Shown piece after piece: positions 3,066-55,148 of a stretch of 64,000 bases of DNA. The notes below the pieces were generated by a model. That model did no database searches and was not told the origin of the DNA. It was given only the letters and a program-made list of their open reading frames with translations. The stretch covers positions 1,229 to 65,228 of the forward strand of contig DASVCV010000007.1 of NCBI GenBank assembly GCA_036381415.1, in the 5' to 3' direction. The DNA comes from Patescibacteria group bacterium. GTDB taxonomy: Bacteria; Patescibacteriota; Microgenomatia; UBA8517. The translations under genes and the position numbers were made by a program. Within the stretch, counting starts at the first letter, position 1; each line of letters opens with the position of its first letter.

Positions 3066-3839
3066 ATGGATAGAAGAACCTTTTTAAGTTCAGTCTTAAC
3101 TGCATTTTTAACAGTGCTTTTTGGAGTATTAGTTCTTTATCTTTTTCCCTGGGACAAAATAAAAATTGGCAACAATCCCCTTTTTCCTAAATCAACAATC
3201 ACAGTTAGCGGTGAAGCCCAAGGAAATGAGAAAAATCAAATAGCAACATTTACTGCTTCTGTTATGTCAACAAATGATGACAAACAAAAAGCAGTTGATG
3301 AAACTAACACAAAAATGACAGATCTTATTAAATCTGTAAAAGCCCTAGGAATAGTAGATGATGATATTAAAACTGAAAACATCAGTATTTATGAGCAGCC
3401 CTCCCCATACCCTGTTCCAATGATGTATCCAACAAGGACTGGTACAGGACAAGGCGCCTGGGCAGCCAACAACACAACTACTGTTACAGTCAGAGATTTA
3501 ACAAAAGTTTCTCCTTTAGCTGATTTGCTTCAAAAAGGTGGAGCAACAAATGTGTATGGTCCAAACTACACAGTTGATAACACAACAAATACTCAAGCAG
3601 ATGTTTTAGGTCAAGCAATTGAAAATGCCAGAAAGAAAGCAGAAAAAATAGCTCAAGCTTCAGGAAGAAGTCTTGGAAAAGCAGTAACAATTCAGGAAGG
3701 CGGCCAGTATGGCGGAATATATCCTCTTCAAATGGATAAAGCAGTCGGTTTAGGTGGTGGATCTGCTCCTTCTACTCCAGTCCAGCCAGGAACTCAAACT
3801 GTTTATAAATCAGTAACTGTCACCTTTGAATTAAAATAA
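3066..3839 (+). CDS. SIMPL/DUF541 domain periplasmic protein
   Basis: 257 aa with an N-terminal TM/signal segment. Overall similarity to the YggE/SIMPL family. Confidence 0.6.
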   Translation: MDRRTFLSSVLTAFLTVLFGVLVLYLFPWDKIKIGNNPLFPKSTITVSGEAQGNEKNQIATFTASVMSTNDDKQKAVDETNTKMTDLIKSVKALGIVDDDIKTENISIYEQPSPYPVPMMYPTRTGTGQGAWAANNTTTVTVRDLTKVSPLADLLQKGGATNVYGPNYTVDNTTNTQADVLGQAIENARKKAEKIAQASGRSLGKAVTIQEGGQYGGIYPLQMDKAVGLGGGSAPSTPVQPGTQTVYKSVTVTFELK

Positions 3840-33480: not shown

Positions 33481-33491
33481 TTGTCAAGTTG

Positions 33492-33562
33492 TGGACCCGG
33501 AGGGAATCGAACCCTCTATCCTTCTATGCCATAGAAGTGTGTTACCAGTATACCACGGGCCC
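33492..33562 (-). tRNA. tRNA-Ala (anticodon GGC)
   Basis: Hand-folded cloverleaf. Acceptor GGGCCCG with a G3:U70 pair, anticodon loop AUGGCAU, T-loop TTCGATT. No encoded CCA. D-stem has one mismatch. Confidence 0.7.
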
Positions 33563-33570
33563 TTGTTATG

Positions 33571-33643
33571 TGGTCGATGCCAGGCTCGAACTGACGACCT
33601 CCTTTACGTCAAAAAGGCGCTCTACCAACTGAGCTAATCGACC
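33571..33643 (-). tRNA. tRNA-Val (anticodon GAC)
   Basis: Cloverleaf GGTCGAT/ATCGACC, D-stem GCTC/GAGC, anticodon loop TTGACGT, T-arm GTCAG-TTCGAGC-CTGGC. Confidence 0.8.
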
Positions 33644-45017: not shown

Positions 45018-46427
45018 TTATCTTCCTAGGCTTAATTTAGAGATGAAGAACATTTTTGCATTTTCGATAATAGTCTGGAGTGTTACAAAAGGTATGACTT
45101 TAATTTCAAAGAAATACTTCTGTGTAATAGGCTGATTGTTAAACAAGAGGAAAAAGTCTTTGTATGACCCTGACTCCTGAGGAAGTTTTCCTTTAATTGA
45201 AATTATGCCTATTTGTCCTGGTTCAATAGTTGCAGGTACTGTAGAAACTATCTGGAAACTTTCCCCCTTATCAGATCTTACCCCCAAGTTTGCCTTATCC
45301 CAAATAGCCTGACCGTTATTTTTAACAAAAAGAAGGGAGTAAAAATCATTGTCAGTATTTCCTATTTGAGGAGTTATCCCGCTTAATATTTCCCCCTCAT
45401 TTACCTGAACTGGCTTGCCAGCTACTTTAGTTAGGTTCTGTACTGAGTAGTAAAAGTTATAGAAATTTCCATCCCTTTTTTTCCAGGAAAACATATCAAA
45501 AAGATTATCCTGGTAGCTAAAAACAAAAGGAGTAACCGCAACCACATTTGGACTGTTCCAAGCATATTTGTATGCTTCCTCATATTTTGCTCCTAAGTCA
45601 TTTGAACTGGTATTTCCAGGAAGCCTTCCACTTGCATCATGAGTCCATCCTGTTTCTGTAATAAAAACAGGAAGATTTTTAGTCACTCCTAAGGTCTTCA
45701 AATAGTCTTCTTCCCACAAATAAGACCTAACACTTCCCTTTCCAACTCCATCTGGGCTTCCTGAGAAATTGGGGTTGGGATATGAATGAGATGCCCACCC
45801 ATCTATATTGTTAAAAAGATCTGGCTCGCTAGATATCATTCTAGCTAGGTAGGTAGACTCATCCATGCTGTCTCTTGTATTGCCTGCTGAGGCATCTAAT
45901 CCAGCAGGTAGTATGAAGTAGTCCCCAGAGGCACTTTTAAGCTTACCTGAGAAGGTTTTAAGGTAGGTAGCATACTCAGAGGGGTTAATTTGCCCTCCCC
46001 ACTCTTTGGCATGGTTTGGCTCGTTCCCAACTGTAATATACCTGTTTTTAATAACCCAGTTTAGAGAGTTAAAAAAAGATACCCAGCCGTCTATTTCATC
46101 AGGATTAGGTTTTTCCCAGACATCACCATTTGGGGCTGTTGCTACACGGACAATAGGTATTAAATGGAGTCTTCTCATTTCATCAAAAACCCTTTGCCAG
46201 CGTCTGGTGTCTCTTTCTCCTTTTTGAATAACTAAAGTCACATAACCCCAATCTCCTCCATTGGAATTAGTTAACTTTGCAACATTTTCCAAGTCCCCTG
46301 CATCTACAACATGGATGCCAAATTTATTGTTAGGAACCAAAGTAGGGTCAGTAATTGCAGAAACAGAAGGTGCAAAAACGAAGAGTGTTAAAAAGAAAAA
46401 GGACAGTAAAAATATTATTTTTTTCAT
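45018..46427 (-). CDS. Secreted clan GH-A (TIM-barrel) glycoside hydrolase-like protein
   Basis: Signal peptide and a VGNEPN motif (NEP catalytic-acid motif of GH5-like enzymes). Confidence 0.55.
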   Translation of the reverse strand: MKKIIFLLSFFFLTLFVFAPSVSAITDPTLVPNNKFGIHVVDAGDLENVAKLTNSNGGDWGYVTLVIQKGERDTRRWQRVFDEMRRLHLIPIVRVATAPNGDVWEKPNPDEIDGWVSFFNSLNWVIKNRYITVGNEPNHAKEWGGQINPSEYATYLKTFSGKLKSASGDYFILPAGLDASAGNTRDSMDESTYLARMISSEPDLFNNIDGWASHSYPNPNFSGSPDGVGKGSVRSYLWEEDYLKTLGVTKNLPVFITETGWTHDASGRLPGNTSSNDLGAKYEEAYKYAWNSPNVVAVTPFVFSYQDNLFDMFSWKKRDGNFYNFYYSVQNLTKVAGKPVQVNEGEILSGITPQIGNTDNDFYSLLFVKNNGQAIWDKANLGVRSDKGESFQIVSTVPATIEPGQIGIISIKGKLPQESGSYKDFFLLFNNQPITQKYFFEIKVIPFVTLQTIIENAKMFFISKLSLGR

Positions 46428-46439
46428 TTAACTAAAATG

Positions 46440-46511
46440 TGCCCCTGGGGGGAATCGAACCCTCATCTCCTCCTTAGAAGGGAGATGCTCTATCCATTGA
46501 GCTACAGGGGC
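46440..46511 (-). tRNA. tRNA-Arg (anticodon TCT)
   Basis: Acceptor GCCCCTG/CAGGGGC, D-arm GCTC/GAGC, anticodon loop CTTCTAA. T-stem has one A-C mismatch. Confidence 0.7.
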
Positions 46512-46517
46512 ATTTTG

Positions 46518-46589
46518 AGCGGCGGAGCGGACTCGAACCGCCGACCTTCTCCTTGGCAAGGAGACATTCTACCACTGAACTACCGCCGC
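46518..46589 (-). tRNA. tRNA-Gly (anticodon GCC)
   Basis: Acceptor GCGGCGG/CCGCCGC, anticodon loop TTGCCAA, discriminator U. Confidence 0.8.
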
Positions 46590-46637
46590 ATTTAGAACAA
46601 TTTAATTACTCTAAAACTATCAAAAATGTCTTATTTG

Positions 46638-46710
46638 TGCCGAGAGCAGGAGTCGGACCTGCATAGCTTGTTCTTCAGACAAGTGCCTTGACCACCTTGG
46701 CTATCTCGGC
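46638..46710 (-). tRNA. tRNA-Phe (anticodon GAA)
   Basis: Acceptor GCCGAGA/TCTCGGC, anticodon loop CTGAAGA (G at position 37), T-loop TCCGACT (atypical), discriminator A. Confidence 0.65.
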
Positions 46711-46735
46711 TTTTACGAGATTATATCAAATTTTG

Positions 46736-46807
46736 TGGGCGCTGAGGGATTCGAACCCCCGACTTTTTCGATGTAAACGAAACACTCTACCGCTGAGTTA
46801 AGCGCCC
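46736..46807 (-). tRNA. tRNA-Val (anticodon TAC)
   Basis: Acceptor GGGCGCT/AGCGCCC, D-arm ACTC/GAGT, anticodon loop TTTACAT, T-arm GGGGG-TTCGAAT-CCCTC. Confidence 0.8.
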
Positions 46808-47514
46808 TTTGGTGCGGGAGAGAGGACTCGAACCTCCACGGATTTCTCCATACGCTCCTTAGGCGTACGCGTATAGCCAGTTCCGCCACTCCCGCTTGTT
46901 GATTGTATTATACCCAATGCTTGGTCAATTTTAAACTTTTTCCTACTTAAACAGGTAACTCCTTCTGAATAGTACAGCACCTCTAACAACCTTAAAGAGC
47001 TATATTTTGCATATTTTAGCAAGTAGCTCCCTCGCCCACCTTTTGAAATATACCCTTTTATTTGATAGAGATATTCTATTTTAAATTTTAGCCAACACAG
47101 AAAATCCCTGCTTGCTGATACATAACCGCTATAAAATACAAAACTGTTAGGCCACTGTTTGCTCCAATAAGAAAAAGTATATCCATCACCATCTAAACAG
47201 CCTCTTAAAAAGTCAGGAAAATATTTATTAGGCACTTTTATATTCTTGATAGTCTTCGATTTTTTCGAATGCAATCCTATAGATTCTAAATACCTATATA
47301 ATTTTACATTTCCCCACTCGATGCGATAATATCTTTTGTTGCTACTACCCGAATTCTTAATACCTATCTTGTTACTTAAACGTAATATTCTTTTAAAATT
47401 TTCTACTTGTTCTAAATCCTTAGAAGTAAAATCAATATGGCGCCCATCTTTCGACAAATATCCATCAGTAGCAATCAACCCAACTACATATGCAAAATCT
47501 CTTGACCAGCGCAT
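46798..47514 (-). CDS. LAGLIDADG homing endonuclease (double-motif, free-standing)
   Basis: Two motifs, VVGLIATDGYL and LRGCLDGDGY, about 100 aa apart. The 3' ~100 nt of the ORF reads through tRNA-Leu(AAG). Confidence 0.75.
   Translation of the reverse strand: MRWSRDFAYVVGLIATDGYLSKDGRHIDFTSKDLEQVENFKRILRLSNKIGIKNSGSSNKRYYRIEWGNVKLYRYLESIGLHSKKSKTIKNIKVPNKYFPDFLRGCLDGDGYTFSYWSKQWPNSFVFYSGYVSASRDFLCWLKFKIEYLYQIKGYISKGGRGSYLLKYAKYSSLRLLEVLYYSEGVTCLSRKKFKIDQALGIIQSTSGSGGTGYTRTPKERMEKSVEVRVLSPAPKGA
46810..46896 (-). tRNA. Type II tRNA, Leu-like, anticodon reads AAG; CCA encoded
   Basis: Acceptor GCGGGAG/CTCCCGC, D-arm GCG-GAACTGGCTATA-CGC, anticodon stem TACGC/GCGTA with loop CTAAGGA, 13-nt variable arm. 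3' ACCA is genomic. Lies 2 nt from tRNA-Val. Confidence 0.6.
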
Positions 47515-47567
47515 TATCTCCTACCTCTATCTCATTAACATTATACCGAAAATATAACGAATGCAAG

Positions 47568-47653
47568 TGCCGAAGAGAGGACTCGAACCTCCACGCCCGG
47601 TAAGGGGCACACGATTCTGAATCGTGCCTGGCTACCAATTACAGCACTTCGGC
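47568..47653 (-). tRNA. tRNA-Leu (anticodon CAG)
   Basis: Type II tRNA. Acceptor GCCGAAG/CTTCGGC, anticodon loop TTCAGAA, 16-nt variable arm, T-arm GGAGG-TTCGAGT-CCTCT. Confidence 0.8.
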
Positions 47654-47727
47654 AAGTGTTTACATTATACCAGGAATACAGCCTCACATGAATAATAGCA
47701 TTTAGCTTTTTGTGATATTATTCTGAT

Positions 47728-48411
47728 ATGCTCGAAAGGATAACTCATACTCCTGAAGTTGAAGCTTCAAATATCAGTTTAACCATGCGCTACCACAGGT
47801 TAGCTACTTTATATGGAGACTACACAATGTACATTAAATTCCTTATTTCAAGCTATGCATCATATGGGAAAGCTATGGATAAAATATTTGAATTCAAATC
47901 CAGGCTTTTAACAATTGATTTGAATCAAAAATATGCCTCTGAGGTTGCAATGTTTATAGCATCTCAAAAAGCAACATTTTTATACAGCCTTCTTTTTCCA
48001 GAAAAGGTAGGTAAGGATTTAAACCAAACTAAAATATCAGAATATATAGGAGAAGATGGTCAAAACACTCCTTCTTTTCTTCACTCCTACTACGACTGGT
48101 TAAATAAGATTTTTAGTTTAAACCCCAACAGTATTGTGGGTTTTAACTTTGAGCCAGATGGAGCTTGTTTCTCAAGCAATACTCCTCCCCATTGCACTTC
48201 AGATAATATCTTAGTTTTAGACAAACAATATAAGGCAGGTATTTCTTTTGTCTTAGCAAACGATACAAGCCATTCCACATATATAGATCCCAAGACAAAC
48301 TCAAAAGAACTGGCAGTTCCAGCTTATGCTGTCAGAGACTACAGCCTTCTTCACAAACTGTTTAAAGCAAGTATTGAAATAGGCAGTGGAGTGGTTGATA
48401 ATTCTATATAA
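47728..48411 (+). CDS. Hypothetical protein
   Basis: 227-aa ORF with no recognizable motif. Confidence 0.45.
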   Translation: MLERITHTPEVEASNISLTMRYHRLATLYGDYTMYIKFLISSYASYGKAMDKIFEFKSRLLTIDLNQKYASEVAMFIASQKATFLYSLLFPEKVGKDLNQTKISEYIGEDGQNTPSFLHSYYDWLNKIFSLNPNSIVGFNFEPDGACFSSNTPPHCTSDNILVLDKQYKAGISFVLANDTSHSTYIDPKTNSKELAVPAYAVRDYSLLHKLFKASIEIGSGVVDNSI

Positions 48412-54746: not shown

Positions 54747-54831
54747 GCCGAGGTGGTGGAATGGTAGACACGCGGGCCTTAAGAGCCCGTGCAGCAATAG
54801 CTGCGTGGAGGTTCGAGTCCTCTCCTCGGCA
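54747..54831 (+). tRNA. tRNA-Leu (anticodon TAA)
   Basis: Type II tRNA. D-arm GTG-GAATGGTAGA-CAC, anticodon loop CTTAAGA, 17-nt variable arm. Confidence 0.8.
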
Positions 54832-54842
54832 CAAGAACTTTC

Positions 54843-54915
54843 CGGGGTATGGCTCAGCTGGTAGAGCGCCTCGTTTGGGACGAGGAGGTCGCCCGTTCGA
54901 ATCGGGCTACCCCGA
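54843..54915 (+). tRNA. tRNA-Pro (anticodon TGG)
   Basis: C1:G72 acceptor CGGGGTA/TACCCCG, anticodon loop TTTGGGA, T-arm GCCCG-TTCGAAT-CGGGC. Confidence 0.8.
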
Positions 54916-54943
54916 CACAACTTTTGGTATAATACTCAAAGAA

Positions 54944-55014
54944 GCGGGTATGGTTTAATGGTAGAACAAGAGATTTCCAATCTCTTTGTGGGAGTTCGAT
55001 TCTCCCTACCCGCT
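54944..55014 (+). tRNA. tRNA-Gly (anticodon TCC)
   Basis: Acceptor GCGGGTA/TACCCGC, anticodon loop TTTCCAA, discriminator U. Confidence 0.8.
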
Positions 55015-55148
55015 CAGAAAGAAAGTCAGCGGGTCGCGCTCGGAAATGGGGCGAGCGCGAAGTTTCCGAATACACCGTATCGAAGCCCGGATTGTAATTT
55101 GGGGAGATATGACGCCTTTAAAAGAAAAAACTCGAAACGTAAAATTTT

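Follow-up and report, generated by a model that had tools for sequence, protein, structure and literature searches.

We describe a homing endonuclease gene (HEG) of the LAGLIDADG type in an array of tRNA genes on contig DASVCV010000007.1 of a Patescibacteria group bacterium, within a stretch of 64,000 nucleotides that we analysed as a whole and call the window. An earlier note, made from the letters of the window, had drawn attention to this gene and laid its emphasis on the way the open reading frame (ORF) runs through a downstream tRNA-Leu. The homing endonuclease gene in the tRNA array is real, but that emphasis was not right. The main result lies at the level of the family: the window gene is one member of an intron-less LAGLIDADG cassette that occurs across the Candidate Phyla Radiation (CPR), with a probable promoter embedded in the coding sequence in one subfamily and fossils of a tRNA 5′ half in many members. 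Our reading, to which we give a probability of about 0.7, is that these genes are free-standing homing cassettes, with neither intron nor intein, forming a CPR-wide family placed immediately 5′ of tRNA-Leu(GAG) or tRNA-Leu(AAG).

The link to tRNA-Leu is the strongest evidence for such a family. A scan of one genome per species of the Genome Taxonomy Database (185,579 species' genomes) gave 263 relatives, a lower bound given the strict search patterns, and the best 80 of these 263 loci were fetched. A tRNA-Leu gene lies directly downstream on the same strand in 77 of the 80, with anticodon GAG in 74, AAG in one (L004) and CAG in two (L007 and L073), and the end of the ORF ranges from 31 nucleotides before the tRNA start to 114 nucleotides after it. 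The three exceptions are two loci at contig ends and L050, which is without tRNA-Leu. Hosts of the 80 loci come from many Patescibacteria lineages, among them Microgenomates, Parcubacteria, Saccharibacteria and Berkelbacteria. Relatives thus carry the gene beside a tRNA-Leu partner rather than at unrelated loci with no tRNA, and the association first seen in the window stands. The spacer between two leucine tRNAs, which had been taken as the site, does not stand in the same way, as what is conserved is the partner downstream, tRNA-Leu(GAG/AAG), and most relatives have no upstream tRNA. The upstream flank is variable: many Microgenomates-like loci have Leu(CAG) on the same strand, some loci have a tRNA on the opposite strand, and others have a protein gene. 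Where loci of the window clade are rearranged (L110, L112 and L113), the pair of endonuclease and Leu(AAG) is intact.

At L050 (2983-3985), the next tRNA is Ser(CGA), about 230 nucleotides away, and this copy could be degenerate or relocated.

In the window, the gene stands within an array of six minus-strand tRNA genes in 46439-47653, as had been described; all six were called by ARAGORN and matched by the Rfam tRNA model. The ORF list and ARAGORN together confirm its place between tRNA-Leu(CAG) and tRNA-Leu(AAG). A fast-filter Rfam scan missed tRNA-Leu(CAG), which a permissive scan recovered. The tRNA genes and the ORF are listed here from upstream to downstream.

47567-47653, minus strand: tRNA-Leu(CAG), upstream neighbour of the insertion (ARAGORN; Rfam tRNA model 49.3 bits in the permissive scan, gathering score 29).
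47514..46798, minus strand: endonuclease ORF, 238 amino acids, ATG start (ORF list).
46810-46895, minus strand: tRNA-Leu(AAG), downstream partner of the endonuclease gene (ARAGORN; Rfam 49.4 bits).
46735-46807, minus strand: tRNA-Val(TAC), whose first 10 nucleotides contain the end of the ORF (ARAGORN, Rfam).
46637-46710, minus strand: tRNA-Phe(GAA) (ARAGORN, Rfam).
46517-46589, minus strand: tRNA-Gly(GCC) (ARAGORN, Rfam).
46439-46511, minus strand: tRNA-Arg(TCT) (ARAGORN, Rfam).

The protein carries the two LAGLIDADG motifs by which it had been recognised, GLIATDGYL at residues 12-20 and GCLDGDGY at residues 105-112, and it matches Pfam LAGLIDADG_3 (PF14528) with an E-value of 9e-7 and 29.5 bits against a cut-off of 22.5. 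The conserved part and its catalytic residues are placed as follows.

46897..47514, minus strand: conserved endonuclease core, residues 1-206 (Pfam, homologue alignment, AlphaFold).
47466-47464, minus strand: Asp17, catalytic.
47187-47185, minus strand: Asp110, catalytic.

Among 5.8 billion proteins there are 1753 homologues, nearly all of 205-225 amino acids, and those that are named come from Woesebacteria, Daviesbacteria, Collierbacteria and other Patescibacteria. Conservation in the alignment spans the N-terminal MxWSxDFAYAVGL to a final RKKFKIDxALGII at about residue 203. In an alignment of 20 sequences, neither D17 nor D110 varies, and acidic residues are found at these positions in all 72 of the loci examined. 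The closest sequence in the PDB is I-Tsp061I (2DCH; phmmer E-value 5e-5). An AlphaFold model built from the homologue alignment has a predicted local distance difference test score (pLDDT) of 86 and a predicted template modelling score of 0.80; it is confident over residues 1-208, with pLDDT of at least 90 for most of 1-205, and has the order alpha-beta-beta-alpha-beta-beta-alpha in both halves, followed by a C-terminal helix at 190-208. The top Foldseek structures are I-Tsp061I (E-value 3e-11), I-AniI, I-DmoI and I-SceI, with probability 1.00. Judged by alignment and model, the window protein is a bona fide two-domain monomeric LAGLIDADG enzyme with its catalytic residues intact.

Parcubacteria-type members (L044, L052, L064, L025, L079 and others) have an apparent earlier start and a basic N-terminal extension (MGKRGPKPK...) that is absent from the window subfamily, although the automatic choice of start codon may be wrong for these members.

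Insertion of the gene into a tight spacer of the array, and the existence of an allele without it in related genomes, had both been predicted, and two metagenome contigs bear both predictions out. They were found by scanning metagenome contigs for the 3′ end of Leu(CAG) followed after 0-30 nucleotides by a Leu 5′ start, which gave L083 (a 792-kb contig) and L085. Both have the order Leu(CAG)-aaggcatgataa-Leu(AAG)-Val(TAC)-Phe-Gly-Arg(TCT)-gene-Lys(CTT), the same as in the window without the endonuclease, with a spacer of 12 nucleotides between Leu(CAG) and Leu(AAG), and they are homologous to the window on both sides (blastn, tblastn). Measured against these contigs, the inserted segment is a single block.

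46896..47566, minus strand: 671-nucleotide insertion relative to the HEG-less allele, made up of the leader and the endonuclease core (comparison with L083 and L085).

The allele with the gene (HEG+) is found in the window, L001, L002, L004 and L110-L113, and the HEG-less allele in L083 and L085. A neighbouring protein of 469 amino acids is 55% identical to its window counterpart in the HEG-less lineage and 53-54% identical in the HEG+ loci L001, L002 and L004; the two kinds of lineage are equidistant at this protein, and thus presence or absence of the endonuclease varies among sister lineages. The endonucleases of the window and L001 are 68.5% identical and those of L001 and L002 68.8%; at the neighbouring protein, the same pairs are 54% and 71% identical. 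Identity between endonucleases thus does not track the distance between hosts, which hints at exchange.

The 12-nucleotide spacer of the HEG-less alleles (aaggcatgataa / aaggcataataa; L083 3876-3887, L085 2416-2427) appears to resemble a stretch ...tAGGTATAATAA... at the 3′ end of the L004 endonuclease gene (about 3598-3621); for L085, 10 of 11 positions match. On this apparent likeness, the empty allele might go back to a deletion, instead of being a site that was never invaded. The metagenome GCA_009772455.1 holds both the HEG-less L083 (WNFI01000001.1) and the HEG+ L112 (WNFI01012713.1), which belong to different organisms, the endonuclease of L112 being 67% identical to that of the window; carriers and non-carriers therefore co-occur in one community.

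Three candidate promoter elements can be placed in and around the insertion.

47664..47672, minus strand: candidate -10 element of the whole array, TGgTATAAT, of the extended -10 type (read from the sequence).
47515..47566, minus strand: endonuclease leader, with TTGCAT at 47566-47561, a 15-nucleotide spacer, TATAAT at 47545-47540 and AGGAG at 47522-47518.
46907..46935, minus strand: embedded promoter-like TTTAAA-17-TATAAT, in codons F194-K195...G201-I202-I203 (promoter scan).

The embedded TATAAT ends 11 nucleotides before the first position of tRNA-Leu(AAG), and the family offers a statistical argument that it is more than a chance match. Of 69 loci, 26 have a perfect TATAAT ending 8-13 nucleotides (mode 10) before the tRNA, whereas at random positions of the same ORFs the frequency is 0.35%. 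The residue preceding the II dipeptide is variable (G, A, S, D or C), yet every one of the 27 perfect cases has T as the third base of its codon; ATA encodes the first Ile in 37 of 45, against a background of 39%; and the codon at the -35 position, when it encodes Leu, is TTG in nine of 12, against 18%. This is constraint on synonymous sites at the nucleotide level, which suggests that one stretch probably encodes the C-terminal helix and acts as a tRNA promoter at once, and that TTTAAA-17-TATAAT is probably the promoter of the tRNA inside the ORF. The embedded promoter is absent from the Parcubacteria-type and Saccharibacteria-type subfamilies.

The HEG-less allele leaves no room for a promoter between its leucine tRNAs and would rely on the extended -10 upstream of Leu(CAG). 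In the window, this element ends 10 nucleotides upstream of tRNA-Leu(CAG), and its equivalent in L083 is TGaTATAAT; the consensus scan did not call it because it has no good -35. The leader of the endonuclease may hold a promoter of its own, TTGCAT-15-TATAAT, with a suboptimal spacer of 15 nucleotides, and it ends in a ribosome-binding site, AGGAG, 3 nucleotides before the ATG (47514-47512). A leader motif, TTGAC(T)TCGT..TTCGG, is kept in L001, L002, L004, L110, L111 and L112, and in L110 even without an upstream tRNA. No terminator-like site was found on the minus strand between 46300 and 47900, which makes co-transcription of the ORF with the tRNAs plausible.

Taken together, these elements suggest how such a cassette could live in a tRNA array. 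It would consist of a short leader with a ribosome-binding site, an enzyme of about 206 amino acids and a tRNA promoter in the last ten conserved codons. The array promoter, possibly together with TTGCAT-15-TATAAT in the leader, would transcribe Leu(CAG)-ORF-Leu(AAG)-Val-Phe-Gly-Arg as one unit, from which RNase P at the 5′ end of Leu(AAG) and maturation of the 3′ end of Leu(CAG) would release intact tRNAs. The insertion would be neutral and harmless because it lies in a transcribed spacer, and the internal TTTAAA-17-TATAAT, for which sequence conservation argues, would restore independent transcription of Leu(AAG) and the tRNAs downstream of it. More speculatively, the processed mRNA of the ORF would have no stop codon, the 238-residue product could come only from unprocessed precursors, and the level of the enzyme could thereby be kept low. 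By analogy with known homing endonucleases, the enzyme would cut HEG-less alleles in or beside tRNA-Leu, and repair would copy the cassette with the tRNA genes serving as homology arms.

Traces upstream of many family members suggest where such a cut might fall. A profile made from the tRNA-Leu genes of the family was run on the 300 nucleotides upstream of each endonuclease. It recovered complete Leu(CAG) genes and, in L044 (E-value 5e-6), L072 (5e-5) and L029, partial matches that cover model positions 1-36/38, with weaker ones elsewhere. Such a remnant is the 5′ half of a tRNA-Leu that ends right after the anticodon (...GGTAKACGC-N6-CTTGAG) and is followed by a TATAAT-like box and then by the start of the endonuclease. 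Remnants are present in 47 of about 72 loci, 33 of them found by regular-expression search and 14 by profile search (E-value below 0.01). Their D-arm and anticodon loop are alike across distant hosts, while the acceptor part, if present, varies (GCGCGGG, GCCCAGG, GCGGATG), and no remnant is identical to the intact tRNA at its own locus. L029 has a complete Leu(CAG) of its own, and a fossil at 438-549, between this gene and the endonuclease, consists of the 3′ end of a Leu(CAG) of another lineage, TT, and the 5′ half of a Leu(GAG) (acceptor GCGGATG) truncated at the anticodon, which suggests that flanks of the donor were transferred along with the gene. No 3′-half remnants were found downstream of the intact tRNA, the only matches there being the T-arms of the next annotated tRNAs. 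A duplicated 3′ end of Leu(CAG) is seen in L024.

The remnants suggest that a tRNA-Leu gene is the target. On their simplest reading, tRNA-Leu(GAG) would be cut near the anticodon, the copied segment would comprise the endonuclease gene together with tRNA-Leu, either intact or as a 5′ half, and the 5′ half that was displaced would persist upstream. The conserved D-arm and loop of the remnant could be a homology arm, an operator or a part of the endonuclease promoter. From this we draw a tentative model, for which we claim rather less than even odds, of a self-healing cassette: the enzyme would cut tRNA-Leu(GAG) in the anticodon loop, and the copied segment would bring endonuclease, hidden promoter and a replacement tRNA-Leu or 5′ half, so that the target is restored with neither intron nor splicing; the fossil 5′ half would stay upstream, maybe as homology arm or operator, and the cassette would have persisted in this way beside one tRNA gene across the CPR, the window representing a derived form that has lost its fossil. 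Mobile endonuclease ORFs of fungal mitochondria are known to carry a replacement piece of the gene that they invade, as in the hybrid atp6 gene of Allomyces. If the remnant model is right, the cassette resembles these in bringing a substitute copy and leaving the displaced native part as a fossil, and differs in that the replaced part is the 5′ half, with promoter, of a bacterial tRNA gene and not the 3′ end of a mitochondrial protein gene.

Two further ideas on the target fared less well. The two leucine tRNAs of the window share 21-22 nucleotides of T-arm and acceptor, and this identity, which the earlier note had offered as a plausible homing target, is indeed present (about 22 nucleotides, at 46817-46838 and 47575-47596). 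As evidence for a target it is weak, since the T-arms of L001, L002 and the HEG-less L083 differ at paired positions, and a shared T-arm is thus not a feature of the family; in the window it may reflect local gene conversion between the tRNAs that flank the insertion. The idea that the anticodon stem-loop by itself tells cut from immune alleles in the window clade is contradicted by L004 and L083, as described below. A likeness to the remnant seen by eye in the window leader (GGTATA...TGAGATA) is not significant.

Several observations weigh against the homing interpretation or parts of it. A profile made from 33 remnants finds no 5′-half remnant in the 52-nucleotide leader of the window or in the window clade. 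On the homing reading, the intact tRNA beside the gene would have to be immune to the enzyme, yet in the window clade the anticodon stem-loops of the HEG+ locus L004 and the HEG-less L083 are identical. We found no relative more than 70% identical to the window genome in which recent mobility might be seen, and exact look-ups of the window endonuclease and of the neighbouring 469-residue protein, made in search of strain-level polymorphism, returned no record of either. Homing by cleavage at a target site is a prediction by analogy, and the promoter and tRNA-processing steps are read from sequence. Finally, about 96% of the copies are intact, and the subfamilies overall follow host synteny groups, though identities within the window clade do not scale with host distance (identity comparisons); this is a pattern that fits long vertical inheritance under selection.

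The last point leads to the alternative that survives best, namely that the family is a domesticated LAGLIDADG protein, inherited vertically since early in the CPR, no longer mobile, and retained for a benefit to the host, for instance as a DNA-binding regulator of the tRNA-Leu locus or simply as the carrier of its promoter. Beyond intactness and synteny, it would account for the fixed position beside one tRNA gene across a superphylum and for the tRNA promoter embedded in the ORF of one subfamily, and domesticated LAGLIDADG folds do exist, WhiA being among the structural matches. In domesticated proteins of the WhiA type, however, the catalytic Asp residues are not invariant, unlike in this endonuclease family, where both are. 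Domestication also sits poorly with an intact array without the gene in an equally related lineage, with the small number of matches in the genome scan, which, lower bound though it is, suggests a patchy distribution, and with the insertion footprints and foreign flank fossils. Pseudogenes exist as well: copies with in-frame stops beside an intact tRNA-Leu(GAG) are found in L013 (3001-3615, one stop), L062 (2989-3606, one stop) and L059 (3001-3609, three stops), and by their sequence these are decaying. We therefore consider domestication unlikely and favour, with fair though not high confidence, an active or recently active homing element.

The read-through that first drew attention to the gene has a simpler explanation than function. 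The frame has no stop until tRNA-Val, just as was described: it enters tRNA-Leu(AAG) at codon 207 (46896-46894), crosses the 86 nucleotides of that gene and a 2-nucleotide spacer, and stops at 46800-46798, 10 nucleotides into tRNA-Val. The resulting tail is placed as follows.

46798..46896, minus strand: C-terminal tail, residues 207-238 and stop, from tRNA-Leu(AAG), the 2-nucleotide spacer and the first 10 nucleotides of tRNA-Val.

A tRNA-encoded C-terminus is thus correct as a statement about the sequence. As a meaningful feature it does not hold, the tail being variable, without conserved counterpart in homologues and predicted to be disordered (pLDDT below 50 for residues 209-217 and 223-233). 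Among 67 full-length members, the stop lies before the tRNA in 27, inside it in 37 and beyond it in three (the window, L070 and L073); P0006 / L111 is a fourth member that reads through the entire tRNA. Even close relatives differ: L001 has a TAG 3 nucleotides before the tRNA, and L002 and L004 stop 35 and 21 nucleotides inside it. The D-loop of the window tRNA is 2 nucleotides longer than that of L002, which puts the TAA of the anticodon loop out of frame. Frames open from end to end are common in the tRNA-Leu genes of the family (53 of 207, or about 26%).

One could still argue that the tail is part of the protein, or that the missing stop acts as a throttle through non-stop mRNA and tmRNA tagging, with enzyme made only from unprocessed precursors; in 40 of the 67 full-length members the stop is inside or beyond the tRNA, and the junction of ORF and tRNA is extremely compact in most loci. 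We find a functional read-through improbable, given the lack of conservation and predicted disorder of the tail, the 27 members, L001 included, that stop before the tRNA, and the chance frequency of open frames. The ORF runs right up to the tRNA and leaves no space for a stop codon, so that the tail is a by-product; by alignment and model, the read-through is incidental and the 32 residues are an unstructured accident of a missing stop. For annotation, this is a caution that an ORF in a CPR tRNA array may be genuine even where it overlaps a tRNA.

There is little to recommend the view that the read-through or the whole arrangement is an artefact of assembly or sequencing. A single-base indel in the D-loop would change the frame that crosses the tRNA, and the window is probably derived from a metagenome; more than 85 independent assemblies, however, share the architecture, the window is not alone in reading through the whole tRNA (P0006 / L111 does so too), and the tRNA is intact with a normal score. 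Least probable of all is an endonuclease encoded in an intron, of group I or another type, or in an intein, with the flanking tRNAs mis-called exons: LAGLIDADG genes are typically borne by introns or inteins, such insertions abound in the rRNA genes of the CPR (PMC11270868; PMC8172020) and the 5′ halves of relatives end in the anticodon loop, the classic position of tRNA introns, but both flanking tRNAs are complete with normal scores, the non-coding flanks of the ORF (52 nucleotides on the 5′ side, 0 on the 3′ side) leave no room for a ribozyme, and the gene has its own ATG and ribosome-binding site.

The search for a group I intron core that the earlier note had proposed found none: in a permissive Rfam scan of 46300-47800 and of seven related loci, there was no group I intron at E-value up to 1, and only tRNAs were found. 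For an intein, Pfam gives LAGLIDADG_3 and neither Hint splicing domains nor a host protein, and NCBIfam likewise has no host-protein or intein-splicing match; its one weak hit (E-value 0.0037, 14.5 bits against a cut-off of 2400), covering positions 1003-1111 of a 1684-position ribonucleotide reductase model, is taken to be the intein endonuclease insert within that model. The contrast drawn earlier, that free-standing homing endonucleases usually occur in introns or inteins, was misworded, as free-standing means by definition outside both. As for carriage by phages, IMG/VR yielded only distant LAGLIDADG genes of 24-34% identity.

On the usual view, a homing endonuclease requires an intron or intein if its host gene is to be spared, or else resides in an intergenic region of a phage. 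The homing cassette that we favour appears to owe its harmlessness to its place in a processed tRNA leader and to a tRNA promoter supplied within the coding sequence, and would be a cellular, intron-less LAGLIDADG gene bound to a single tRNA gene across a bacterial superphylum. If the remnant model is also true, it would represent a third way of neutralising a homing insertion, besides splicing and intergenic placement, and a natural family of compact meganucleases with a tRNA-gene target. In a literature search of incomplete coverage, we found no description of a tRNA-Leu-linked LAGLIDADG family in the CPR, and its novelty is provisional.

The closest functional analogue of the window cassette is SegB of phage T4, a free-standing GIY-YIG homing endonuclease in the phage tRNA gene cluster, whose 27-bp site includes a conserved 11-bp motif of the tRNA T-loop and whose homing carries neighbouring tRNA genes along (PMC2330249). 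Both genes lie between tRNA genes, outside any intron, a layout established for the window by ARAGORN, the ORF list and Rfam. The likeness stops at analogy and does not extend to membership of the Seg family: the window domain is LAGLIDADG and not GIY-YIG, the setting is a cellular chromosome instead of a phage, and SegB is not bound to one tRNA species. The abstract on SegB mentions no overlap of ORF and tRNA, no embedded tRNA promoter and no 5′-half remnants (PMC2330249).

Closer in host and enzyme are the LAGLIDADG genes found in insertion sequences or introns of CPR 16S and 23S rRNA and in rRNA operon spacers (PMC11270868; PMC8172020). They share with the window family the host group, the enzyme superfamily and a place in stable-RNA units where processing can neutralise an insertion, but they lie within rRNA genes or spacers, whereas the window family is tied to tRNA-Leu(GAG/AAG); tRNA is nowhere mentioned in PMC11270868. 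The closest solved structures, I-Tsp061I (2DCH) and I-DmoI (template modelling scores 0.61-0.70), are likewise two-domain monomers with two motifs and of similar size, but they are only about 20% identical, are encoded in archaeal rRNA introns and have target sites that are, as far as known, unrelated. In the tRNA punctuation of mitochondria, processing of tRNAs from polycistronic transcripts defines the ends of mRNAs. The direct abutment of ORF and tRNA recalls this in layout only, as punctuation is a general mode of transcript processing and not a mobile element.

The anticodon of the downstream tRNA-Leu is AAG in the window clade, where most CPR relatives have GAG. Apart from Arg(ACG), A34 is unusual among bacterial tRNAs, and its presence would point to inosine formation or to a departure from the usual decoding. 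These AAG genes lie at 46810-46895 in the window, 5619-5700 in L001, 5632-5714 in L002, 3622-3704 in L004, 3888-3973 in L083 and 2428-2513 in L085, and are also present in L110-L113. As HEG-less alleles carry AAG too, the anticodon is not a consequence of the endonuclease, and the idea of A34 as an immunity mutation caused by the enzyme finds no support. If the ARAGORN call of AAG is right, the anticodon loop of the L001 gene (5619-5700) reads CCAAGGA, with C at position 33 in place of a near-universal U.

Some metagenome-assembled genomes with a Patescibacteria-type locus are labelled 'uncultured Gammaproteobacteria' or 'Nanoarchaeota' (L004, L005, L009-L014 and others), which probably reflects mis-assigned taxonomy or mis-binned contigs. 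Sub-threshold matches to the Rfam model 'Plastid-ycf2 5′UTR' lie antisense to tRNA genes at 46439-46511 and 46735-46807 (plus strand) of the window and in related loci too, and are taken as an artefact of the model rather than a feature.

Over its 64 kb, the window contains no rRNA gene and no Rfam family other than tRNA above threshold. The neighbourhood of the array is ordinary CPR-type chromosome, with a GTPase, a CTP synthase, a methyltransferase and many proteins without a family match. There are 14 tRNA genes in the whole window (1-64000), and four further Leu, Val, Ala, Pro and Gly tRNAs lie in small clusters at 33491-33643 and 54747-55015.

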